A stretch of 17,640 nt of DNA from a virus (taxonomy: Duplodnaviria > Heunggongvirae > Uroviricota > Caudoviricetes). The stretch is from the IMG/VR virus record IMGVR_UViG_3300028586_000764, one strand, 5' to 3'. Under the pieces are notes generated by a model. It did not search any database, was not told the origin of the DNA, and saw only the letters and a program-made list of their open reading frames with translations. A program made the position numbers and the translations under genes. Each line of letters begins with the position of its first letter. The first letter of the stretch is position 1. This document shows, in pieces, positions 6,017 through 17,640 of this stretch.

Positions 6017-6076
6017 ACATAAAGCATCTAAACTAGGTGCCTACATGTTGCCATTCCCTAATTTTTGGGCTGGCAC

Positions 6077-7438
6077 ATGCTGTTTCCAACCATCGGATTC
6101 ACCGTATTTTTCTTCGTCGTGCTGGCGTTCTGGCCGCTCATGCGAACCACTGCCGCACGCACGCTGTTCCTCGCAGTAGCCAGCGGTACTTTCTGTGCGG
6201 TGGCCAGCCCTGCGCTGCTCCTCTATGTGGCGGCTTGGGCAGGTCTCTTGACCTTTGCGGGCAAGCGCCGTGAGCATGGCGCCCGGGTAGCGGTCTTGTC
6301 CTTAGCGCTTCTGCAGCTAGTGTTCTGGAAAGCGTTTGAGACCCTACCTCGAGGCATGCTTCCGGAAGCCGTCGCGCACTGGGTCATCCCGCTGGGGGTG
6401 TCGTTCTTTACCTTCCAGGGCCTGACCTACCTTTTCGCCCGAATGAAGGGCACCATCGACACGCCCTGGGACTTCACGCGGGTGTTCGCCTTCTGCTCCT
6501 TCTTCCCAACCATCTTCTCTGGGCCAATTCTGCGCGCGAAGACCTGGTCGGAGCACCTGGAGCAACCTGTCCCGCTCTATACCAAGTCGGTGGTGAGCCG
6601 CGCACTTGGCTGGGTGGTGCTGGGTCTTGCCTACAAGCTGGTGCTGGCCACGCTGTTGGGTGAGATTGTCGACGCCGCTTGGAGCGACCCGGGTGAGCAG
6701 CCGGCGGCAGCACTCTGGCTTGCGGCTTACGCCTACGCGTTCCAGCTATACGCGGACTTCGCTGGTTATTCGCTCCTTGCGCAAGCCGTTGCGTTGCTGC
6801 TCGGCTTCGCCATTCCCGCTAACTTCGACCAGCCGTACCTGGCCACAAGCGTGCAGGCGTTCTGGCGCCGTTGGCACATGAGCTTTTCAACCTGGCTGCG
6901 TGACCACCTTTACATCGACCTACTGGGTGGCAACAAGCACGGCCGGTCTCGTCAGATTATCAATGTGCTGGTGACGTTCTTCCTGTGCGGCGCGTGGCAC
7001 GGTCTTGCGCTCCACTACCTCATCTGGGGCGCCTGGCAGGCCGTAGCGGTCGCTTACTCGACGGTCAGCCGCATGGTGCTGGGTGAGCGTGCGCCGCCTG
7101 GGCGCGCCAAGCTGGTGCTGCACTGGCTCGTGGCTTTCCATGCCGCCGTTTTCGGCTGGGTATGGTTCCGCGCGCCGTCAGCAGAGGCAGCCGTAGACTA
7201 CTTCTCGGCCATGGCGACGACCGACTGGTCCTGGCGCCCAGAGTATCTGACCGGAATCGTCCTGGTTCTGGTCGCACTGGCTGTACACGTCGTAGAAAAA
7301 CGTGTTCTTAACGGGATGACCTGCTTTGCTGACAAGGCAGGTGCTATCAATCGCGCTGTTTTCTGGGCTCTGGCCATCGTGTTTGTGCTGATGCTGAGCC
7401 CTGCCGGCCTTCCTCCATTCATTTATTTCCGCTACTGA
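6077..7438 (+). CDS. patA: MBOAT family O-acyltransferase (PatA/AlgI-like)
   Basis: Start MLFPTIGF. Motifs PLGVSFFTFQGLTYL, FFPTIFSGPILR, YADFAGYS, NFDQPY, FWRRWHMSFSTWLRDHLY and GAWHG (catalytic His). C-terminal PPFIYFRY. Many TM segments. The symbol reflects family plus the adjacent PatB-like gene; the substrate is not proven. Confidence 0.92.
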   Translation: MLFPTIGFTVFFFVVLAFWPLMRTTAARTLFLAVASGTFCAVASPALLLYVAAWAGLLTFAGKRREHGARVAVLSLALLQLVFWKAFETLPRGMLPEAVAHWVIPLGVSFFTFQGLTYLFARMKGTIDTPWDFTRVFAFCSFFPTIFSGPILRAKTWSEHLEQPVPLYTKSVVSRALGWVVLGLAYKLVLATLLGEIVDAAWSDPGEQPAAALWLAAYAYAFQLYADFAGYSLLAQAVALLLGFAIPANFDQPYLATSVQAFWRRWHMSFSTWLRDHLYIDLLGGNKHGRSRQIINVLVTFFLCGAWHGLALHYLIWGAWQAVAVAYSTVSRMVLGERAPPGRAKLVLHWLVAFHAAVFGWVWFRAPSAEAAVDYFSAMATTDWSWRPEYLTGIVLVLVALAVHVVEKRVLNGMTCFADKAGAINRAVFWALAIVFVLMLSPAGLPPFIYFRY

Positions 7439-7440
7439 CC

Positions 7441-8577
7441 ATGTCGACTTTTCGCCCATTTGTCCACCTGACCCTCATTGGCGCGCTGGTCGCCTGGTAT
7501 CAGCTGCCTGTCATGGCTGAGCGCAGTCATGCGCTGACCATGCCTGGGCACGAGGCCCTGACCGATACTTTGGATACTGCCACAGCTACCATTGGCCAGC
7601 CTATGGTGGCGCTGCGGGCCTGGTCCGAACAGTCCAAGCTTAATCTGCAGGCGGGACTACTCGAGGCAGCTACGCCAATGCCCGGGGCCCTGGCCGCAGC
7701 CCCCGCAGCCGCGCCGGCGGTGGTCCGTGCGCCTGTTACGGCTCCTGTGAAGGCAACCGTGGACATGTCGGCACCTGTGCTTGCTGCAGCTGCTGGTTCG
7801 GCGGCCGCCGCCGCTAAGCTGACAGAAGCAGGTACTCCGCCGGCCAATACTGCCCCGGTAGGCGGGGCCGGCACTTCCAAGAGCGATAACGCCACCCCAG
7901 GGCCATCCGAAAAAGGAGTTGTAGCCGTCTTGGCCGGCGACTCTGTCATGGGCGAGATTGCGTTTGGCATGCAGCGGTGGGCGGCAAAGGCCCACTCCTG
8001 GACTATCGTTGACGCGCACAAGGTGTCGTCGGGACTGTCGAACACCGGCTACTACAACTGGCCGGTCACGTTCCATAACCTGCTCGAGGCTCACCATCCG
8101 AAGGTCGTGCTGATGATGGTAGGCGCGAATGACGCGCAAGACATCGTCGAAGGTAAGCGTCGCCAGCCTTTTGGGACCCCGGGTTGGCAGGCGACTTACA
8201 GTGACCGCGTCCATACGATACTCAAGGATGCGTCTGCCCACTGTACGACGGTCTACTGGACACTGATGCCGATTGTCCGCGAACCGGGCTTCGAGAAGAA
8301 AATGGCACTCGTACGCCAGGTTATCCGGGACGCAGCCAAGGAACATGGCGATACCGTACGAATCATTGACCCCAATGAGCGGTTCGTGGACAGTGCAGGC
8401 CGCTATATGGAATCGGCACGCATTAACGGTAAATCGAAAGCACTGCGCACGGACGACGGCATTCACCTGACCTGGGCCGGCGCGCAAGTGTTCGTCGACT
8501 CAGTGCTTGAAGATGCTGCTCGCCGTCCTGTAACTGCCAACGGCTGCCGGGTCGACGGGCCCGCGGCGCGCGAATAA
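7441..8577 (+). CDS. patB: SGNH-fold O-acetyltransferase (PatB/DUF459-like) with N-terminal anchor and Ala/Pro-rich linker
   Basis: Block I AGDSVMG, block II SSGLS, block III VGANDAQD, block V DDGIHLT. Starts 2 nt after the MBOAT stop. Spacing of the blocks matches Neisseria/Campylobacter-type PatB as I recall it. Confidence 0.86.
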   Translation: MSTFRPFVHLTLIGALVAWYQLPVMAERSHALTMPGHEALTDTLDTATATIGQPMVALRAWSEQSKLNLQAGLLEAATPMPGALAAAPAAAPAVVRAPVTAPVKATVDMSAPVLAAAAGSAAAAAKLTEAGTPPANTAPVGGAGTSKSDNATPGPSEKGVVAVLAGDSVMGEIAFGMQRWAAKAHSWTIVDAHKVSSGLSNTGYYNWPVTFHNLLEAHHPKVVLMMVGANDAQDIVEGKRRQPFGTPGWQATYSDRVHTILKDASAHCTTVYWTLMPIVREPGFEKKMALVRQVIRDAAKEHGDTVRIIDPNERFVDSAGRYMESARINGKSKALRTDDGIHLTWAGAQVFVDSVLEDAARRPVTANGCRVDGPAARE

Positions 8578-8622
8578 CCCCATTTTTTTTTACTTACCTG
8601 CCCGGTACGCCGGGCAAACAAT

Positions 8623-9054
8623 ATGACGACTACAACTGCAGCTGAACAAGTCTCCGATGCATCTTCCAAGATGCGCTTCCATACCAGGAAATGGGTGAAG
8701 CCGGAGGACCTCAATCCCAATGGAACGCTGTTTGGTGGGCGCCTCCTTTCCTGGATTGATGAAGAAGCGGCGATTTACGCAATTTGCCAGCTCGGGCACA
8801 CCCGCGTCGTGACGAAATACATGTCCGAAATCAACTTCATCAGTTCCGCACGCACTGGGGACGTGATTGAGCTCGGGATTGTCGCGACGGCCTTCGGCCG
8901 GACCTCGCTGACACTGCGGTGCGAAGTTCGTAACAAGATGACGCGAACAAGCATCCTGACGATTGACCGCATGGTCTTTGTCGGCCTGGATGAGGACGGT
9001 AACCCGCAGCCGCATGGCAAGACAGCAGTTTCGCCAGCAGGTGAAACTGCATGA
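8623..9054 (+). CDS. Hotdog-fold acyl-CoA thioesterase (YciA-like); alternative start ATG 8671
   Basis: MRFHTRKWVKPEDLNPNGTLFGGRLLSWIDEEAA ... INFISSARTGDVIE ... FGRTSLTLRCEV matches the acyl-CoA hydrolase signature. Confidence 0.92.
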   Translation: MTTTTAAEQVSDASSKMRFHTRKWVKPEDLNPNGTLFGGRLLSWIDEEAAIYAICQLGHTRVVTKYMSEINFISSARTGDVIELGIVATAFGRTSLTLRCEVRNKMTRTSILTIDRMVFVGLDEDGNPQPHGKTAVSPAGETA

Positions 9055-9126
9055 AAGGGGGTTCGTTCGCACCGACCATCGGAACGTAAAGTCTAAAAGC
9101 TTGCCGCGGTTGTTGCTGAGTAGAAC

Positions 9127-9861
9127 TTAGAACCCGTGGGTGCTGAGTGAAAGAAAATACCGCCGATTAAGTGCCACCACTTCGTGGGCCAGTTCTAGCA
9201 GTTCGGCGTCTGTCACCGTATTTTGCTTTTCGAATAACGTAACTGTAACAGGGACCTGCTTGACTAAGGAAGTGACGGAACGAACACGAACCAAGTATGG
9301 CTCTGCATTCTCTTCGGAGAACGATACGTCGGCACCGATTAGCCCTTGGTCATACTTAGCGGAGTACTGGATTGTTATATCCGCTAAGTCAGATATCGTG
9401 AAACCTAGGCCAGCTTTCGTAGCCAGTTTGTTGGCATTATTCATGTTCTCCCGAAATAGCCCGCTAGGGGGACGTGGCTGCCCTCGGAACATCGATGCCA
9501 CAGACTGAGTGACCGTTTTCGGCTTTTCATCAGCGGTTACCAGCACTTCCACCGAGCCCCACGCAGGGGCTCGAGCTATTGCGCCGTCTCGCAATGCGGC
9601 CAAGTCTGAACAGTGGTAAAACGACGCGATGGTGCGATTAGGCGTATGGCTAGTCGAAACTGCCTTGGCGGTGCTTATGCGAGCATTTACCGCCTTGTCG
9701 AAGTCATGTGTGTAACCTCGGAGGCAGTACCCCTCGGGAAGCAGGAGCTCTGGAATGTTCCCTGAAGCGGCTGCGGACAACGGCAGCGACATTCCGCCAG
9801 CTACTACAAGCCGAGCAGCTGCTGAAAGAATACGAGAGCAAAGTTTTTTAGACAGATGCAT
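9127..9861 (-). CDS. Putative exported hypothetical protein (244 aa)
   Basis: ATG at 9861 gives MHLSKKLCSRILSAAARLVVAGGMSLPLSAAA-SG, signal-peptide-like with an AxA cleavage site. In frame with track ORF 9127..9933. Lower GC. Confidence 0.7.
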   Translation of the reverse strand: MHLSKKLCSRILSAAARLVVAGGMSLPLSAAASGNIPELLLPEGYCLRGYTHDFDKAVNARISTAKAVSTSHTPNRTIASFYHCSDLAALRDGAIARAPAWGSVEVLVTADEKPKTVTQSVASMFRGQPRPPSGLFRENMNNANKLATKAGLGFTISDLADITIQYSAKYDQGLIGADVSFSEENAEPYLVRVRSVTSLVKQVPVTVTLFEKQNTVTDAELLELAHEVVALNRRYFLSLSTHGF

Positions 9862-10060
9862 AGTTGAAGGTTTTCGAGTGGGTGGAGTGCTCTCGCGCAA
9901 TGCTGGGACGCTATCTGCGTAACAACGCCCCAAAAAAGGGTGGTTCCAAGCGCAGACGCCAGGATAGCTACGTCAAAGTAAGAGCTTAGGACAAATCGAG
10001 CAGCAAATGGCGGCAGCCGCGTAGCCATCTCATATTTGAATTGTCGCCATAGGGTACTCC

Positions 10061-10531
10061 TCACGATTTGTTAGCTCCAACAAATGACAAGTAGTCAGAG
10101 AGCCCCTCGTCAAGACCCTCGCCAAAAGCGTCTGAGCCCTTGTCAATGAGCACGCCGGCAAGCATCCAAAAATTTAGATGCGGCCCAAACAGCGTCGCCA
10201 ATACAGCCTTCGATTTTTGCATCCGCTCAAGAGGCGGAAGCGTATGCCATAGGAGAGTGGCCCAGGTAAACGCATAACCCAGTTGTTTGTGAGCATTAGG
10301 GTTGGTACGCCAGTACTCCTCTGACTCACTATCCGAGGCTGCCAACTTTGCGCGTAGGTATCGTGTGGCAGCTCGGACTTTCTTGGACTCATCGGAATCA
10401 AGAACGTCAAAGAATCCTTTGAGGTCCCCGTCAAGCGCGGCCTTACCGGCTCGTAGCACTTTTCCGAACAGTTTTAGAATGACAAAAAGGAGGAAGAGTG
10501 CGAGAAAAATAAGTGAACCGACACCACGCAT
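10061..10531 (-). CDS. Hypothetical protein with N-terminal TM anchor
   Basis: ATG at 10531 (MRGVGSLIFLALFLLFVILKLFGK), in frame with track ORF 10061..10561. Confidence 0.7.
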   Translation of the reverse strand: MRGVGSLIFLALFLLFVILKLFGKVLRAGKAALDGDLKGFFDVLDSDESKKVRAATRYLRAKLAASDSESEEYWRTNPNAHKQLGYAFTWATLLWHTLPPLERMQKSKAVLATLFGPHLNFWMLAGVLIDKGSDAFGEGLDEGLSDYLSFVGANKS

Positions 10532-10584
10532 GTTGAACTTTCTAGCTAGACATAGTCCCACTTATAGCTAACTTTGGAAATTTC

Positions 10585-11358
10585 ATGCGACAACTCATCC
10601 TGTCATGTGTAACTGTGTTGCTGCTTAGTACCTCAGCAGGGACAGCGGCACAGGGTATCCCGGACGACCAGTACCAACAGCTTAAGCAAGCCTATCCCTC
10701 TTTCGCCAAGGCAGAAGCTCGACTCAACGAAGCCTACCGACTCGTGAGGGCTGAAGCAGACCCACTTGAGGCTGAGGGCCTACGTAGACAGCAGCGCGCT
10801 TGGATTAACGAGCGAGGGGCTGTGTATGAGTCAATCGGGGCCAACGACGAACTTGATGAATCGCAGAAAGTTGATGTTCTTACTACGATGGCTGCCGAGC
10901 GCGAGCATCAGATAAAGGTGCTCGAAGAAAAGTTCAACCGTGTCCCAGTAGAAGACGAACCAGAAGGTCTCGAAATCGACGATGCTCCCCTAGAAGCGGT
11001 AGCTGATTCGGTTGTACCCGATACATCCCCGCAAGCAGCCCCCCAGCCATCCCTAGAAGCTAACCACCAGCGCGAAGCAATCAATGAGATGCTAATGTGG
11101 TACTATGCAGGAGCTGTATTTCTTGTTGCCGTTTTATTGCTAGTTAAAGTTAGCAGAGCCATTCAAGCGGCAAAGCAGCGACGAATGCGGCAGGAACAGC
11201 TAACTGCGATTGCAGACGACATGGCGAATCAAATATGCGCCCACGCAGCTGGAGCGCTAACACGGTTGCGCGTAGAGCAAGAAGTGCTTGCTCGGCGCGA
11301 AGAACTTCAGGCCGCCGAGAGAGACTTAAAAATCGCATTAACTGAACGAAAGGGGTAA
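10585..11358 (+). CDS. Signal peptide + LprI (DUF1311)-like lysozyme-inhibitor domain + acidic/Pro linker + TM helix + coiled coil
   Basis: Signal MRQLILSCVTVLLLSTSAGTAA. The segment AEARLNEAYRLV...LRRQQRAWINER matches the LprI/DUF1311 pattern. TM MLMWYYAGAVFLVAVLLLVKV; C-terminal heptad-like helix. Confidence 0.72.
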   Translation: MRQLILSCVTVLLLSTSAGTAAQGIPDDQYQQLKQAYPSFAKAEARLNEAYRLVRAEADPLEAEGLRRQQRAWINERGAVYESIGANDELDESQKVDVLTTMAAEREHQIKVLEEKFNRVPVEDEPEGLEIDDAPLEAVADSVVPDTSPQAAPQPSLEANHQREAINEMLMWYYAGAVFLVAVLLLVKVSRAIQAAKQRRMRQEQLTAIADDMANQICAHAAGALTRLRVEQEVLARREELQAAERDLKIALTERKG

Positions 11359-11445
11359 CAACCTCTGTGAGACCATTATATCTAGATGACAACTACCTGA
11401 AGTAATGGTAAAATGTTCTCATATTGACGTGTCGAATTTAACGCC

Positions 11446-11474
11446 TTGCTGAAAATGTTCAGAAGGTATAAAGT
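11446..11474 (+). promoter_or_regulatory. Candidate sigma70 promoter for the leader-thrS transcript
   Basis: TTGCTG (11446-11451), 17 nt, TAAAGT (11469-11474). Only a partial match to consensus. Confidence 0.35.
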
Positions 11475-11513
11475 CGATACCCATACCTGACAGAATTCAC
11501 GCAACTGGACCCA

Positions 11514-11606
11514 ATGAACGCTTTCCGCACAACGACTACGACCACCACCACTGGCCCGACCGGGCTGGCGGTGGTGAGTTTGGTCGTCGTGTCGACAAGT
11601 CGATAG
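11514..11606 (+). CDS. Threonine-rich leader peptide (30 aa) MNAFRTTTTTTTTGPTGLAVVSLVVVSTSR
   Basis: ATG at 11514; eight consecutive Thr codons ACA ACG ACT ACG ACC ACC ACC ACT at 11529-11552; TAG at 11604-11606; lies 114 nt upstream of a ThrRS gene. Below the ORF-track size cutoff. Confidence 0.9.
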   Translation: MNAFRTTTTTTTTGPTGLAVVSLVVVSTSR

Positions 11607-11680
11607 CGCAGCCCAGTAGCTCACCACACCTCTCGCCGCCCGGTCCAGGTCTCGTACCTGCACCGGGCGGTTTGCATTTC
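11529..11680 (+). promoter_or_regulatory. Ribosome-mediated transcription attenuator (1:2, 2:3, 3:4 helices)
   Basis: 1:2 = ACGACCA (11538-44)/TGGTCGT (11581-87) and CACCAC (11546-51)/GTGGTG (11571-76). 2:3 = GTGGTGAG (11571-78)/CTCACCAC (11620-27), GGCG (11567-70)/CGCC (11634-37) and GGGC (11562-65)/GCCC (11638-41). 3:4 = terminator 11636-11670. Confidence 0.8.
11636..11679 (+). terminator. Attenuator terminator hairpin
   Basis: CCGCCCGGT-c-CAGGT-ctcgt-ACCTG-c-ACCGGGCGG (14 bp with one C-C mismatch) followed by TTTGCATTT, an interrupted U-tract. Confidence 0.72.
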
Positions 11681-11720
11681 AAATCCTGAATTACCACAAC
11701 ACACTATCTGGAGCCTTACC

Positions 11721-12908
11721 ATGAACGAAGAACGTTACCTCGATGTCGCCGCCCGCATGCAGCTTATCCACCTGGGCCAGTCCGCCGGTGTAGTCTACTG
11801 GCAGCCTGCCGGCCTGAACTTGTACGAGCGACTGCGCAGCTATATCCGTCGCATTCACCGCCAGCATGGCTACCTCGAGGTCAAGAGCCCAAGCCTCGTC
11901 GGGCTGGAAGTGTTCGAGCGCTCGGGCCACCTCGGCAAATACCGGGAAAACATGTTCTTGGCCAATCAGGTCAACGACCCTGCGCGCCATCCGGACGTTC
12001 AGGCTTACGGCCTGCGCCCGATGAGCTGCCCAAACCATATTGAGCTGTACGGCTGCGCCCGCCGCAGCTATCGCGAACTGCCAATGCAGCTCTTCGAGTT
12101 TGGCGACGTTTTCCGCAATGAGCCGTCTGGCTCCCTCCAGGTGCTGTTCCGCCAGCGCCAATTCACCCAGGATGACAGCCACGTCTTCGCCGGCGAAAGC
12201 CAGGTGGCGGAAGTGGCCGCACGTTACCTGTCCATGGCGCAGCAGGTATTCCACGACCTCGGCTTCGAGTCCGTTGAGTATGCGCTCTCGCTGCGCCCGG
12301 CCGAGCGATTTGGCGAAGATGTTCTGTGGGACCGTGCTGAAGAGTCGCTGCGCTCGGCGTTTCGCGGCGCCGGCCTGGCCTGGAAAGAGCAGCCCGGTGA
12401 AGGGGCGTTCTATGGCCCCAAAATTGAACTGGGTGTGCGCGACAAGCTGGGCCGTCTCTGGCAGATGGGCACCCTGCAGCTGGACTACGTGCTGCCAGAG
12501 CGATTCGACCTGTCGTACCAGGCGGCTAGCGGCGCCTACGAGCGCCCAGTCATCCTGCACCACGCAGTGCTGGGCTCGCTCGAGCGCATGATTGGCATTT
12601 TGCTGGAAGTGCATGGCGAAGCGCTGCCGGCGTTCCTGCACCCCTATCCGGCAGTTGTGCTCGCCGTGTCCGAAAAGAGCGCAGAATACGCCAAGCGCGT
12701 GCATTCCGAGCTACTTAAGGCAGAGCCGGACGCCCTGCTGGATGACTCGAACGACACCCTCGGTGCCAAGTTGCGCCTGTGGCGTTCGCGCGGGGTGGCC
12801 GCTATCTATGTCATCGGCGAGAAAGAGGCTGAGCGCTTTGCCCAGGAAGGCCAGGTGTGGGCGATGCTCTCGGAAGGGCGTAGCCAAAAGCCAGTGCAAG
12901 TTGCCTAA
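11721..12908 (+). CDS. thrS: Threonyl-tRNA synthetase, catalytic + anticodon-binding domains only (395 aa)
   Basis: SGHLGKYRENMF, RPMSCPNH (Zn Cys), FRNEPSGSL..LFRQRQFTQDDSHVF (motif 2, Zn His), GEGAFYGPKIE, WQMGTLQLD, ILHHAVLGSLERMIGIL (Zn His, motif 3). C-terminal anticodon domain ...SNDTLGAKLR...VIGEKE. GGAG SD 7 nt upstream. Confidence 0.96.
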   Translation: MNEERYLDVAARMQLIHLGQSAGVVYWQPAGLNLYERLRSYIRRIHRQHGYLEVKSPSLVGLEVFERSGHLGKYRENMFLANQVNDPARHPDVQAYGLRPMSCPNHIELYGCARRSYRELPMQLFEFGDVFRNEPSGSLQVLFRQRQFTQDDSHVFAGESQVAEVAARYLSMAQQVFHDLGFESVEYALSLRPAERFGEDVLWDRAEESLRSAFRGAGLAWKEQPGEGAFYGPKIELGVRDKLGRLWQMGTLQLDYVLPERFDLSYQAASGAYERPVILHHAVLGSLERMIGILLEVHGEALPAFLHPYPAVVLAVSEKSAEYAKRVHSELLKAEPDALLDDSNDTLGAKLRLWRSRGVAAIYVIGEKEAERFAQEGQVWAMLSEGRSQKPVQVA

Positions 12909-14324: not shown

Positions 14325-15665
14325 TTACGGCAGTTCCAGCTCGATGTAGTCGCCGAAAGGTGGCTTGATGCCGCGGCGGGTGCCTTCGGGTACCGCCCAG
14401 AGAACTGGGTAGTCCGGGGCGACTGTCGGGAAAGTGCCTTCCAGGTCGGTCAGGTAGATGAAGCAAGTGCAGTCGATGCCCTCGTCTTCCACCCACTTGA
14501 ACGGTGGTCGGAAATCCGTACCGCCGCCGCCCTTCGCTTTTGCCTCGAACTCTTCTTCGTCACCGGAGAAGATGGTTTGCACGCGTTGAATCGTGGCGTC
14601 CACGTCCAGCACATACACTGCTTCTGGCTTGATGGTCTCGATGATGTCGAGCAGCTCGCCGTTCATTAGTTGCAAGTACTTGCCCCCAATGGAACCGCTA
14701 GTGTCGCGCACGATGACGATAGCTGGAACAGTGCTGCCGACCATGCCGGGGAAGAAAAATCCCGTGTGCATGTAGCGCATATTTGGCCGCGACCAGGTGT
14801 AGTCAGGCGAAGCCAGCGAGGTCTCGAAGAAGTGCCGAAGCTCCTCTTTCCAGTTCGTTGGCGACTTCAGGGTTTCACCTACCAGACGCTGCATATCCCC
14901 TGCAAGATTTCCTTGCATTCGGACCGCAGTGTCCATGGCCATTTTCCAGTCGGCTTCGTGATTCTCGTCTTCTGGCGCTGGTCGAACTTCACCAGGGATG
15001 GGCGCCGGTTTTGATTCTGGCTTGGAGCCAGGACCACCTTTACCGTCTCCGTCCGCATCGCCATCGCCTTCGCCACCACCCGGACTTTCACCCGGAGCGG
15101 GAGTTGAAGGACCAGGCGAGTCGCCGTCGTCTTTCGAGTCATCGCTACCACTGCCATCCTCGTCCCCGTCGCCTGGAGCAGGCGATGGCGTATCCTTGCT
15201 GCCACCTTTAGAGGGCGCAGGCTTGCTTCCCGAAGGAGGCGCAGCCTGCAGCTTCTCGTAGATGGCTTCTGCGGACAGACCCTCGTACTGCTGGTCATGC
15301 GGAACACCTGCTGGCAACCGCATACCAGAATTGACCAGCAGCGGGTAAATGGCAAAGGTACAAGCTTTCTGCCACTCACCAGACTCACGGGAGTCCTGCC
15401 GCCACGGGTGACCCGCAGCGATGTGCGTGACCGACTTGCCGATGATACCTCGCAGCTCTACGTCTGCCAGACTGTCGACATAGCCCGGGTTGAACCCGAA
15501 CGACACCGAATCAGTCCACACCGTCGAGCAGGAAGGGTCTTCCACGAGTTTCAGCCGCAAGGCCAACATCCCGTAGAAAGGCTCATCCATCACGAGGTTG
15601 GCTCGGGCACGGACCATACGCTCGAGGCGCTGGGCCGCAGCCGCGGCGACCTTATCAGGCTGCAC
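14325..15665 (-). CDS. DUF2201-type metallopeptidase-like domain + Gly/Pro/Asp linker + VWA domain protein
   Basis: N-terminal FYGMLAL...TVWTD...FNPGYV...HIAAGH..R...W.KAC pattern of DUF2201 proteins. VWA MIDAS RDTSGS, GGGGTDF, YLTDLEG. The GTG start overlaps the upstream stop by 11 nt. Confidence 0.88.
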   Translation of the reverse strand: MQPDKVAAAAAQRLERMVRARANLVMDEPFYGMLALRLKLVEDPSCSTVWTDSVSFGFNPGYVDSLADVELRGIIGKSVTHIAAGHPWRQDSRESGEWQKACTFAIYPLLVNSGMRLPAGVPHDQQYEGLSAEAIYEKLQAAPPSGSKPAPSKGGSKDTPSPAPGDGDEDGSGSDDSKDDGDSPGPSTPAPGESPGGGEGDGDADGDGKGGPGSKPESKPAPIPGEVRPAPEDENHEADWKMAMDTAVRMQGNLAGDMQRLVGETLKSPTNWKEELRHFFETSLASPDYTWSRPNMRYMHTGFFFPGMVGSTVPAIVIVRDTSGSIGGKYLQLMNGELLDIIETIKPEAVYVLDVDATIQRVQTIFSGDEEEFEAKAKGGGGTDFRPPFKWVEDEGIDCTCFIYLTDLEGTFPTVAPDYPVLWAVPEGTRRGIKPPFGDYIELELP

Positions 15666-16557
15666 GCTTGAACTCCGCAGCAGCCGGGTTCATGCCGGCG
15701 CCAGCCGGATTCATGAACGCCTGCATCACATTGAAGACAGTCTGGGCTTCTGCGGCCACGCGTTGACGCGTATCCGGGTTGAGCTTGACTGCTTCAGCCG
15801 AGATGCCGGCCAGGCTCTTCTGCAGACGCTCGGACAGCATGTCCAGGCGCTCGTCGTTCATGATGTTCATGCGCGGCAGCAGAGCTGCCAGGTCACGCAC
15901 ACCTGCGATGGTTTCTTCCTTGACGTAGGCCTTCTCGTCACCCAGCTTGCTGGTCAGCTTCGCCAGACGCTCGTAGAGGTCTTCAAAGTTGCGGCGATTT
16001 GCGCGAGCATACGTCTCGTGCATGTCCGCCTCCAGCTTGCTGCGCATGGCATCGGCTTCGGCCGGGTCCAGTCCCAGTTCCAGCAGTCCGGTGGATGCCG
16101 GCATCGGCTGAGCCTTGATTTCGAACGCGTAGCGCGATTTCAGGGCGGCCTGGTTAGGATAGTCGGCAGGGTCGTACAGCTTACCCAGCACAGAGGCTGC
16201 TTCGCCTTTGATGGTGTCGTACTGGGCCAGGAAGTCCAGCACGCCGTTCTCGAAGTCCGACTTGTAGCGGCGCATCTGCGTCATGTACGCATCGAAGTTC
16301 GCGGTCAGCAGGATACGCGGGCCGTCGTGCATCCAGGCATGCGTGTTCTCGTAGTGGAACGTGCGCGCTGCGCGGATGACGCTGAACAGGCGGTCCATGA
16401 CATCGGTCTTGGGCAGTAGGCTCTTGCGCAGACGGCACAGACGTTTGTCTTTGACGTCGTTGGCATCGGCCACGTCCTGCGAAACACGCTTGTCCTGACG
16501 GTTTGCGTCCCAGTTGCTGATGTTCAGCGTGACGAGGATTGCGTTTTTGATTTCCAT
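15655..16557 (-). CDS. DUF3150-like protein (300 aa)
   Basis: AAGGA SD. Pattern LVTLNIS.W...K.LL.........R..HY..T..W...G.RIL...FL..Y......LG.LY...DYP....L...Y.F typical of the family that accompanies MoxR/VWA pairs in mobile elements (recognition only). Confidence 0.8.
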   Translation of the reverse strand: MEIKNAILVTLNISNWDANRQDKRVSQDVADANDVKDKRLCRLRKSLLPKTDVMDRLFSVIRAARTFHYENTHAWMHDGPRILLTANFDAYMTQMRRYKSDFENGVLDFLAQYDTIKGEAASVLGKLYDPADYPNQAALKSRYAFEIKAQPMPASTGLLELGLDPAEADAMRSKLEADMHETYARANRRNFEDLYERLAKLTSKLGDEKAYVKEETIAGVRDLAALLPRMNIMNDERLDMLSERLQKSLAGISAEAVKLNPDTRQRVAAEAQTVFNVMQAFMNPAGAGMNPAAAEFKRAA

Positions 16558-16614
16558 AGTAGTGTCCTTGATTTTTTTTTGTCGAAAAGTGATGCTCTTG
16601 CTGACCAGCGATGC

Positions 16615-17640
16615 TTAGCCGAACAGCGATGCCAGCTCGCCAGTCGTTGCCTGGATGTACGCAGATGTCTGCGTCAGCTCCGGCTTGCGTTTCTGGCAGT
16701 CGCGAATCAGACGCGCAGCCATTTCGCCGCTACCGTCCTTATTCAGGCGTTCTGCATAGCGCACAACTTGCCCGAAGTTTTCCGGGTTGGCGTAGTACGC
16801 CAGCGCACTTGTCAGCATGTACAGCACCGAAACGTCCTTGCTGAGCTTGGATTTTTCCGGGTTGAGCAGAATCGAGTCCGGCGAAGGCAGCGAGCGCCAG
16901 TTCTTCAGGAACTCGACCACTTGCGTAGCAGCACCCACACCGATTGCACCAGCCAGGCCGTCGCGTTCGATGTCCGTGCCGAGTTTCGCCAGGCCCGCGT
17001 TCATCAAACGGCCCGCGTTCGCCCAGGTACGAGGACTTGGGCTGTTCACGATTTCCGTGGTCGGAGCGTGCATCAGCAGCGAGGTCGGGTTCATGCGCAG
17101 GTAAGCAATCAACTCACCAGGCATGGCTGCCCCCAGCGCCCAGTCCACCCATGCGTCCAGCGAAGGCTCGACGTTGATGATGGTCACGAAGCGGCTTTTC
17201 ACAGGCTCCAGGATGCCGTTGACGCCGGCGCGGTCAGCCTTACGGTTGGTCGCAGCGACGAACGTTACGCAGTCCGGCAGCACGTGCTCACCGATACGGC
17301 GAGCCAGCAGCAACTGCATGTAAGCCGCCTGAACAGCCGGAGACGCTTGCCCCAGGTCGTCCAGGAACCACAGCAGTGGTCGAGTTGCCTTCAGCGCCCT
17401 GGCCAGGTGGCCATAAGGCAGGAACTTCGCGAATTCACCAGAGGCGTCCGCGTAAGGGAAACCTTTTGGGTCCGTTGGGTCTTCGACGACCGGATGCGAG
17501 ATTTGCAGGTCCATGCCCTCGAAAAGGGAGACTTGTTCAACCAGGTCCGATTTGCCGACACCCGGCGGACCCACCAGAATTACTGGCAGTTTGTTGCTGA
17601 CGCAAAGCCGGGTAAGCGCGATTGCTTGGATGATATCCAT
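16615..17640 (-). CDS. MoxR-type AAA+ ATPase (start may lie beyond the window edge)
   Basis: Walker A GPPGVGKS, Walker B LLWFLDD, sensor-1 VAATN, Arg finger PVKSRF, SPRTW motif. The ATG occupies the last three bases of the window. Confidence 0.93.
   Translation of the reverse strand: MDIIQAIALTRLCVSNKLPVILVGPPGVGKSDLVEQVSLFEGMDLQISHPVVEDPTDPKGFPYADASGEFAKFLPYGHLARALKATRPLLWFLDDLGQASPAVQAAYMQLLLARRIGEHVLPDCVTFVAATNRKADRAGVNGILEPVKSRFVTIINVEPSLDAWVDWALGAAMPGELIAYLRMNPTSLLMHAPTTEIVNSPSPRTWANAGRLMNAGLAKLGTDIERDGLAGAIGVGAATQVVEFLKNWRSLPSPDSILLNPEKSKLSKDVSVLYMLTSALAYYANPENFGQVVRYAERLNKDGSGEMAARLIRDCQKRKPELTQTSAYIQATTGELASLFG

Follow-up and report, generated by a model that had tools for sequence, protein, structure and literature searches.

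The viral record IMGVR_UViG_3300028586_000764 (Duplodnaviria; Heunggongvirae; Uroviricota; Caudoviricetes) is considered here as a stretch of 17,640 nucleotides, hereafter called the window. Between positions 11,514 and 12,908 it carries a small open reading frame (ORF) with a run of threonine codons, followed by the gene of a short threonyl-tRNA synthetase (ThrRS). We propose, with a probability of roughly 0.7, that the two form a self-contained and self-regulating spare ThrRS cassette, which tops up the charging of tRNA(Thr). Most likely, the short ThrRS is switched on through the eight consecutive threonine codons, and only when charged threonine tRNA is in short supply. The mechanism would be textbook leader-peptide attenuation, and what is unusual is its target, a spare synthetase that is naturally devoid of an editing domain. 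An inducible backup enzyme sensing charged tRNA-Thr had already been put forward in a first-pass annotation of this DNA, and this part of the annotation is well supported, both by the anatomy of the leader and terminator and by the conservation of these elements in relatives.

Attenuators of this type depend on tandem codons for the amino acid that is sensed, placed within a short translated ORF. The predicted leader ORF (Table 1) contains an unbroken run of eight threonine codons (nt 11529-11552), in which all four of them (ACA, ACG, ACT, and ACC) occur. They also require an intrinsic terminator downstream of the leader ORF and ahead of the gene under control, and folding predicts a hairpin followed by a U-rich tail at this place. 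The minimum free energy fold of positions 11500-11725 (-86.9 kcal/mol, z = -4.5 compared with shuffled sequences) contains both this terminator and the 1:2 helix. According to the second requirement of the classical model, a ribosome positioned at the leader stop codon would cover segment 2. The 3' end of segment 3, the proposed antiterminator, overlaps the start of the 5' arm of the terminator. A stalled ribosome was represented by blocking the RNA to 12 nt beyond the threonine run and by omitting the 3' arm of the hairpin as not yet transcribed; in this snapshot, segment 2 of the window pairs with positions 11619-11640.

The same architecture is predicted in relatives of the window. Terminator folding covered the first 10 of 14 distinct family loci, and an equivalent hairpin and U-run, differing in sequence, was found in all 10. 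The 2:3 helix of the stalled-ribosome snapshot overlaps the 5' arm of the terminator in 9 of them; in the nine loci other than the window, the overlap measures 4-9 nt in eight and is absent from the ninth (L090). A simple terminator scan missed the terminator of the window, probably because of an internal mismatch in the stem or of the interrupted U-run. Across the window, Rfam gave no match at gathering thresholds; at E <= 10, positions 11400-11730 matched neither Thr_leader (RF00506) nor any other relevant family, so the leader does not belong to the Thr_leader family.

Upstream of the leader lies a putative promoter, whose TATAAA element is kept, together with the bases located 3' of it, in the two closest relatives (loci L083 and L081). 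In alignments, the block 11461-11513 is 68% identical in L083 and 53% identical in L081, versus 26-30% further upstream. A consensus promoter scan called a different site (ATGACA-17-TAAAAT, 11386-11414). The promoter motif TnGCTAYAC-N5-AGGNCAAC is absent before the leader and before the gene, and two matches with 3 mismatches found elsewhere do not exceed the number expected by chance.

Table 1. Coordinates of the cassette in the window and of translation-related gene sites at other loci of the family
Feature	Position	Strand	Description
Promoter-like block	11446-11472	+	TTGCTG, 15 nt, TATAAA; putative, from sequence
Leader peptide ORF	11514-11606	+	30 codons and stop; Thr at codons 6-13
Segment 2	11565-11590	+	inside the leader ORF; 1:2 helix with the Thr codons in the ribosome-free fold
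Segment 3	11619-11640	+	CTCACCAC...CGCCGCC stretch complementary to segment 2; proposed antiterminator
Intrinsic terminator	11636-11680	+	35-nt hairpin 11636-11670 (-26.6 kcal/mol), then tail TTTGCATTTC; predicted by folding
Ribosome-binding site of the ThrRS gene	11710-11713	+	GGAG, 7 nt 5' of ATG; kept in L083 and L081
Short threonyl-tRNA synthetase	11721-12908	+	395 aa; class II catalytic core and anticodon-binding domain
Translation or tRNA gene sites near family members	L086 11415-13094; L265 1-744; L090 10070-10528; L085 13037-13936

Conservation provides the second line of evidence. Among 5.8 billion proteins searched, more than 120 proved to be relatives of the synthetase (56-98% identical; about 360-490 aa, mostly 380-405 aa). 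None of them is full length, and the editing domain is completely missing in every family member. The DNA of the 14 distinct loci, whose proteins are 54-94% identical and whose G+C content ranges from 26 to 63%, was then compared. In all 14 loci, 4-8 consecutive threonine codons occur in a small ORF that lies at most about 220 nt upstream of the short thrS; as a background, 1.76 Mb of control DNA read on both strands contains 3 small ORFs with at least 5 consecutive threonines that are not directly upstream of a short ThrRS. The association of leader and short ThrRS is not a matter of chance. Between the window and the 94%-identical L083, nucleotide identity is 88% in the leader ORF and 88% in the terminator, compared with 57.6% at third codon positions of thrS (dS, the synonymous divergence, of about 1.3) and 26% in far-upstream DNA. 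The leader RNA is thus much better kept than the synonymous sites of the gene that follows it. The short thrS itself is under strong purifying selection, with ratios of non-synonymous to synonymous substitution (dN/dS) of 0.029 and 0.091 relative to its nearest relatives.

The window, L083, and L081 are syntenic, and the other members of the family lie among unrelated genes, which indicates that leader and gene travel as a unit. A survey of plasmids and phages for this unit had been suggested in the first-pass annotation. The clade of the window is absent from the plasmids in PLSDB; the plasmid-borne ThrRS found there are ordinary thrS products, all of them at most 43% identical. No near-identical DNA was found in phage and plasmid collections, the sole match being 126 bp of ssb, and a scan of 185,579 species-representative genomes yielded one true family member. 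A metagenome scan, whose peptide pattern was rather generic, gave ordinary thrS and a single contig that had been known beforehand.

The 395-residue protein matches the Pfam families tRNA-synt_2b (PF00587, 1.1e-38) and, at residues 311-372, HGTP_anticodon (PF03129, 3.4e-10). It covers positions 189-536 of the 565 positions of the NCBIfam thrS model TIGR00418. As the N-terminal part of this model is unmatched, the TGS and N2 editing domains are absent and the protein starts where the catalytic domain starts; without them, the score (363 bits) falls just below the curated cut-off of 383.65. Alignment to solved structures places the start of the protein around residue 239 of the Escherichia coli enzyme, residue 9 being aligned with E. 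coli residue 247. The AlphaFold model, whose mean predicted local distance difference test score (pLDDT) is 75.5, superposes on the crystal constructs of deltaN-ThrRS, the truncated E. coli enzyme, over about 397 columns with template modelling (TM) scores of 0.78-0.80. The alpha/beta anticodon-binding domain is modelled at a pLDDT of about 90. By contrast, confidence is low at residues 112-149, which correspond to the motif-2 region, and the model supports no statement on this loop.

The active site is intact at its zinc ligands and at the aligned core positions. C103, H154, and H281 are present and invariant in 20 family members, and correspond to C334, H385, and H511, the zinc ligands of E. 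coli ThrRS. R132 and E134 in motif 2 and R289 in motif 3 do not vary within the family, and their aligned E. coli counterparts are R363, E365, and R520. D152, K234, and Q253, also invariant in the 20 members, map by offset to E. coli D383, K465, and Q484, presumably core catalytic positions. Around this conserved frame, three loops differ from those of solved enterobacterial ThrRS: RPMSCPNH (residues 99-106) faces KPMNCPGH, VFRNE (residues 130-134) faces CHRNE, and LQVLFRQR (residues 139-146) faces LHGLMRVR. These deviations from the usual consensus had been pointed out in the first-pass annotation; alignment to solved ThrRS and comparison with other short clades confirm that they are real and clade-specific. 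Indeed, the usual HRNE and L(H/q)GLMR.R persist in full-length enzymes, in an alphaproteobacterial clade of short ThrRS, and in viral short forms. The K-to-R and G-to-N changes beside the zinc-binding cysteine and the change of QCGT to QMGV are likewise specific to the clade of the window, which is monophyletic on the tree (100% support in the Shimodaira-Hasegawa-like approximate likelihood ratio test, SH-aLRT).

Taken together, these elements suggest the following cycle. Transcription would begin upstream of the 30-codon leader. When Thr-tRNA(Thr) is plentiful, the translating ribosome would pass the threonine run, reach the leader stop, and mask segment 2; the hairpin 11636-11670 would then form, and transcription would stop before the synthetase gene. 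When Thr-tRNA(Thr) is scarce, whatever the cause, the ribosome would stall on the threonine run. Scarcity could result from a shortage of threonine, from a low level or inhibition of the host ThrRS, from damaged tRNA, or from the demand of a very large replicon. Segment 2, left free by the stall, would pair with segment 3 and compete with the terminator, so that the polymerase could enter the gene. The product, a natural counterpart of deltaN-ThrRS, would charge tRNA(Thr), the charged pool would rise, and the switch would turn off by negative feedback. Termination, read-through, and aminoacylation activity are what we infer, and so is a cost in fidelity: having no editing domain, the enzyme probably also forms some Ser-tRNA(Thr), which would have to be tolerated or cleared in trans by the full-length ThrRS of the host.

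Such a host enzyme does accompany the short copy in the only cultured carrier, Variovorax sp. GT1P44, where the full-length thrS scores 714 bits and the short one 330 bits. The first-pass annotation had called the short ThrRS an accessory copy, and for this strain the term is appropriate; for the replicon of the window it may apply. The 437-kb IMG/VR contig that carries another member (G002, behind locus L095), rated by CheckV as a 98% complete virus, contains the short thrS only. A search for Terminase_6N in this contig gave no match; the label of virus is thus unconfirmed by that marker, and the element may be a phage or plasmid-like.

Several observations weigh against the proposal of a spare cassette controlled by attenuation. 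First, of the 15 nt that make up the 5' arm of the terminator, the long 2:3 helix of the window takes up just 3, and folding indicates that the terminator still forms at thermodynamic equilibrium. Read-through must therefore be kinetic, as in classical attenuators. Second, the U-tail of the window is interrupted (TTTGCATTTC), and the start codon of the leader is preceded by just a weak Shine-Dalgarno-like GGA, which is not kept in L083 or L081. Finally, the divergence of the motif-2 loop is strong, and the stem of the clade is long, at 1.05 substitutions per site; an altered handling of tRNA or of a ligand is therefore possible.

Besides the clade of the window, other lineages of short ThrRS help to separate the switch from the enzyme. 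A second clade comprises about 23 chromosomal short ThrRS from Rhodospirillales and allies, 42-45% identical to the protein of the window. On the tree it is nested within alphaproteobacterial ThrRS, apart from the clade of the window. Most of these genes have leaders with a threonine run or rich in threonine, and a full-length thrS accompanies the short copy in all five genomes tested. The leader logic of this clade is the same and its motif-2 loop is ordinary, so the switch needs no diverged active site. In eight of the alphaproteobacterial leaders (L015, L027, L031, L004, L013, L063, L019, and L020), located about 100-160 nt before the short thrS, a motif resembling (R/C)-x-GGP directly follows the threonine run; it could reflect an RNA-pairing constraint or a feature of the nascent peptide.

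A third lineage is represented by Photobacterium sp. MCCC 1A19761 (L028), whose short ThrRS sits on a long branch outside both main clades and whose leader is also rich in threonine (four Thr, Glu, two Thr). Conversely, many short ThrRS are encoded on IMG/VR contigs of 90-580 kb without such a leader. They include the editing-less enzymes, of other lineages, of L102, L103, L112, L140, L145, L155, L157, and L168, on contigs of 370-580 kb, where the 400 nt upstream contain no threonine-rich leader. As short ThrRS exist without a leader, truncation and leader control are separable. The pairing of a leader with a short ThrRS has nevertheless arisen or persisted in at least three lineages, on giant elements, on alphaproteobacterial chromosomes, and in Photobacterium.

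The carriers of the cassette are large, and the element of the window resembles a giant plasmid. The exact protein of the window occurs on an 810-kb contig, and the best plasmid matches of the DUF2201/VWA protein of the window (52-53%) are four Variovorax megaplasmids of about 800 kb. One of these, pWDL1-1, has five genes in common with the window, at identities of 43-65%, namely g0653, that of the single-stranded DNA-binding protein (SSB), and a syntenic triad of MoxR, hypothetical, and VWA genes. A search of the whole of pWDL1-1 revealed no homologue of the short ThrRS, and no tRNA gene was found within the window. In the window, the triad lies on the minus strand (14325-17640) and encodes a DUF2201 metallopeptidase/VWA protein, a 300-aa protein, and a MoxR-type AAA ATPase; their order is that of pWDL1-1 (52-60% amino acid identity), and they also match the phage families phrog_1314 and phrog_1297. 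Elsewhere in the family, on contigs of 0.1-1.4 Mb, the short thrS is often found near translation or tRNA genes, coding for ArgRS, a class IIb synthetase, a PTH2-type peptidyl-tRNA hydrolase, or a Thg1-like protein (Table 1).

Upstream of the cassette, the gene of an MBOAT acyltransferase precedes that of a DUF459/SGNH hydrolase, with 2 nt in between (6065-8577), in an arrangement resembling a PatA/PatB O-acetylation pair. The pair is kept in L083 (80% and 75%) and in L081 (70% and 53%), and not in the other loci of the family. The 2.8 kb or so between the SGNH gene and the threonine leader (8590-11358) have no counterpart in the syntenic L083 and L081; they hold three ORFs without a family match and the gene of a 257-aa LprI-like protein (PF07007, 6e-7).

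The readings that compete with a spare charging enzyme concern the purpose of the cassette. The boldest of them makes it a portable rescue module of giant plasmids or phage-like elements, whose remodelled active site would be either immune to a ThrRS inhibitor, a toxin, or a host defence, or else tuned to the tRNA(Thr) of the element. We regard this broad version as doubtful. If it were true, the element would keep translating while threonine decoding by the host is off, and the loss of editing would be a matter of design rather than economy.

The first-pass annotation had favoured the former option, in which the short ThrRS is insensitive to borrelidin, obafluorin, or a toxin or defence effector, and is induced through the attenuator when the host enzyme is blocked, the whole forming a mobile, self-inducing resistance or anti-defence module. 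To judge from its anatomy, the sensor would indeed respond to inhibition of the host ThrRS exactly as to starvation. In addition, the cassette occurs in unrelated contexts on very large, mobile-looking replicons, its clade sits on a long stem branch, and the active-site changes in the motif-2 loop, beside the zinc cysteine, and in QMGV are all specific to that clade. Auxiliary resistant synthetases are an established class (PMC9437257), and the indolmycin-resistant, attenuator-controlled trpRS1 of Streptomyces offers an analogy. The known determinants of resistance tell another story. For the immunity of ObaO to obafluorin, the sole determinant defined by experiment is G463S (E. coli numbering), a change that adjoins the covalently modified Tyr462 and also lowers sensitivity to borrelidin (PMC11252418); it is absent here, Y231-G232 being intact in all family members. 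Changes of H309 or L489 confer 300-1000-fold resistance to borrelidin (PMC4389257), and both positions are unchanged (H70 and L258) and invariant in the family. The other borrelidin contacts (PMC4389257), mapped by offset, are kept except for K73 (E. coli N312) and V257 (S488), two positions that already differ between the borrelidin-sensitive E. coli and human enzymes. Pfam annotation of neighbouring genes revealed no biosynthetic cluster and no polyketide synthase, nonribosomal peptide synthetase, or oba-like gene beside the window or the other 13 loci. Moreover, in the short clade of Alphaproteobacteria this leader logic goes with a motif-2 loop of the ordinary kind. With known resistance positions of wild type and no adjacent biosynthetic cluster, the proposal of an inhibitor-resistant or anti-defence module thus found no positive support, and we consider it rather unlikely, although the unexplained remodelling of motif 2 leaves it some room.

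The latter option, slightly less probable again, is that the enzyme is specialised for the tRNA(Thr) genes of a giant element, or for its translational demand, with a motif-2 loop fitted to the acceptor stems of these tRNAs. The motif-2 loop touches the tRNA at its acceptor end in class II synthetases, which counts in favour of this idea, and so do the translation genes found near family members (those for ArgRS, a class IIb synthetase, PTH2, and Thg1). Variovorax megaplasmids of about 800 kb, which are the cultured relatives of the backbone, carry full tRNA arrays (PMC7313664). However, pWDL1-1 has such an array and no short ThrRS, and the window itself is devoid of tRNA genes.

Less probable still is a form of adaptive mistranslation, in which the editing-less enzyme would put serine on tRNA(Thr) under threonine starvation, so that ribosomes would advance at the cost of Thr-to-Ser substitutions. 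An extra ThrRS cannot make threonine during starvation, the switch senses stalling at threonine codons of any cause, and the editing domain is wholly absent in every member, all of which would suit such a role. There is also a precedent in the inducible T2 enzyme of Anabaena, which makes Ser-tRNA(Thr) (PMC4787780). Nevertheless, mischarging in Anabaena is treated as a liability, which T1 corrects (PMC4787780), and a small gene relying on trans-editing by the host is a simpler account of the architecture. Last, a ThrRS-like paralogue acting outside translation, for instance in amino-acid activation for another pathway, would agree with the sub-threshold TIGR00418 score and with the NCBI name of the Variovorax member (just 'aminoacyl--tRNA ligase-related protein'), but is very improbable, as the missing N-terminal third accounts for that score, the anticodon-binding domain, zinc ligands, and aligned core catalytic positions are retained, and control by charged tRNA(Thr) is sensible solely if the product feeds that pool.

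The searchable literature contains no description of a threonine-codon leader before a truncated bacterial ThrRS, nor of this clade of ThrRS. In a review from 2022 on duplicated synthetases, the ThrRS entries are limited to Anabaena T2 and the eukaryotic ThrRS-L (PMC9437257), and a weak leader with two threonines has been noted before a thrS of Streptomyces (PMC8079986). The cassette offers a comparatively well-supported case of a natural synthetase under leader-peptide feedback from its own product, and of an enzyme naturally stripped of its proofreading domain. It could serve as a system for asking how much threonine/serine proofreading cells need. It also bears on whether trans-editing by the host covers the synthetase of a mobile element, and on the means by which very large plasmids and phage-like elements ensure their supply for translation.

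Among known systems, the thrZ gene of Bacillus subtilis, reportedly described by Putzer and co-workers, is said to encode a second ThrRS that is induced when ThrS or charged tRNA-Thr is limiting. On the proposed reading, both cases involve a normally silent spare ThrRS, which low charging of tRNA(Thr) switches on through transcription antitermination in a leader. They differ in the sensor, as the T-box riboswitches of thrZ bind uncharged tRNA directly whereas a threonine-codon leader would be translated here, and in the enzyme, which is full length with an editing domain in the former and lacks its N-terminal half in the latter. In E. coli, thrL-thrABC and pheM-pheST are controlled by leader-peptide attenuators, and pheM controls a synthetase. 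The leader of the window resembles them in that tandem regulatory codons lie in a short ORF, and an intrinsic terminator is predicted for it, as are alternative 1:2, 2:3, and 3:4 hairpins. Whereas thrL mixes threonine and isoleucine codons and targets biosynthetic genes, the regulatory codons of the window are for threonine only, and the target is a ThrRS.

The auxiliary TrpRS gene trpRS1 of Streptomyces coelicolor is also said (by Vecchione and Sello in 2010) to be under the control of a leader-peptide attenuator. It resembles the cassette in having such an attenuator before an auxiliary synthetase, the logic proposed in the first-pass annotation, but TrpRS1 is experimentally resistant to indolmycin (PMC9437257), whereas the known resistance positions of the protein of the window are wild type. 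ObaO and BorO are second copies of ThrRS as well (PMC11252418, PMC4389257). They come from antibiotic producers, ObaO being associated with the oba cluster, and have defined substitutions that the protein of the window lacks. ObaO is moreover full length, the construct used in PMC11252418 spanning residues 241-637.

The T2 enzyme of Anabaena provides another parallel, as a stress-induced second ThrRS that is deficient in proofreading and that subunits of the main enzyme correct in trans (PMC4787780). Unlike the short ThrRS, T2 is full length, has a degenerate editing domain, and is induced by low zinc and not by stalling at threonine codons (PMC4787780). Enzymes reduced to a catalytic core and an anticodon-binding domain are known from yeast mitochondria (MST1; PMC4267643; PDB 3UGQ) and from crenarchaea (ThrRS-cat; PDB 3A31). 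These serve as the housekeeping enzymes of their compartment or organism, belong to other lineages (27-29% and 26% identity, respectively), and are not known to be controlled by a leader. Finally, deltaN-ThrRS (E. coli residues 242-642; PDB 1EVK and 1EVL, among others) has nearly the same boundaries, a fold that matches the model over about 397 columns (TM 0.79-0.80), and the same zinc ligands and core catalytic positions as the protein of the window. The latter, about 40% identical, differs in an 8-residue insertion before the strand of the zinc-binding cysteine, in its diverged motif-2 loop, and in a slightly shorter C-terminus, and it is a natural enzyme where deltaN-ThrRS is a construct.

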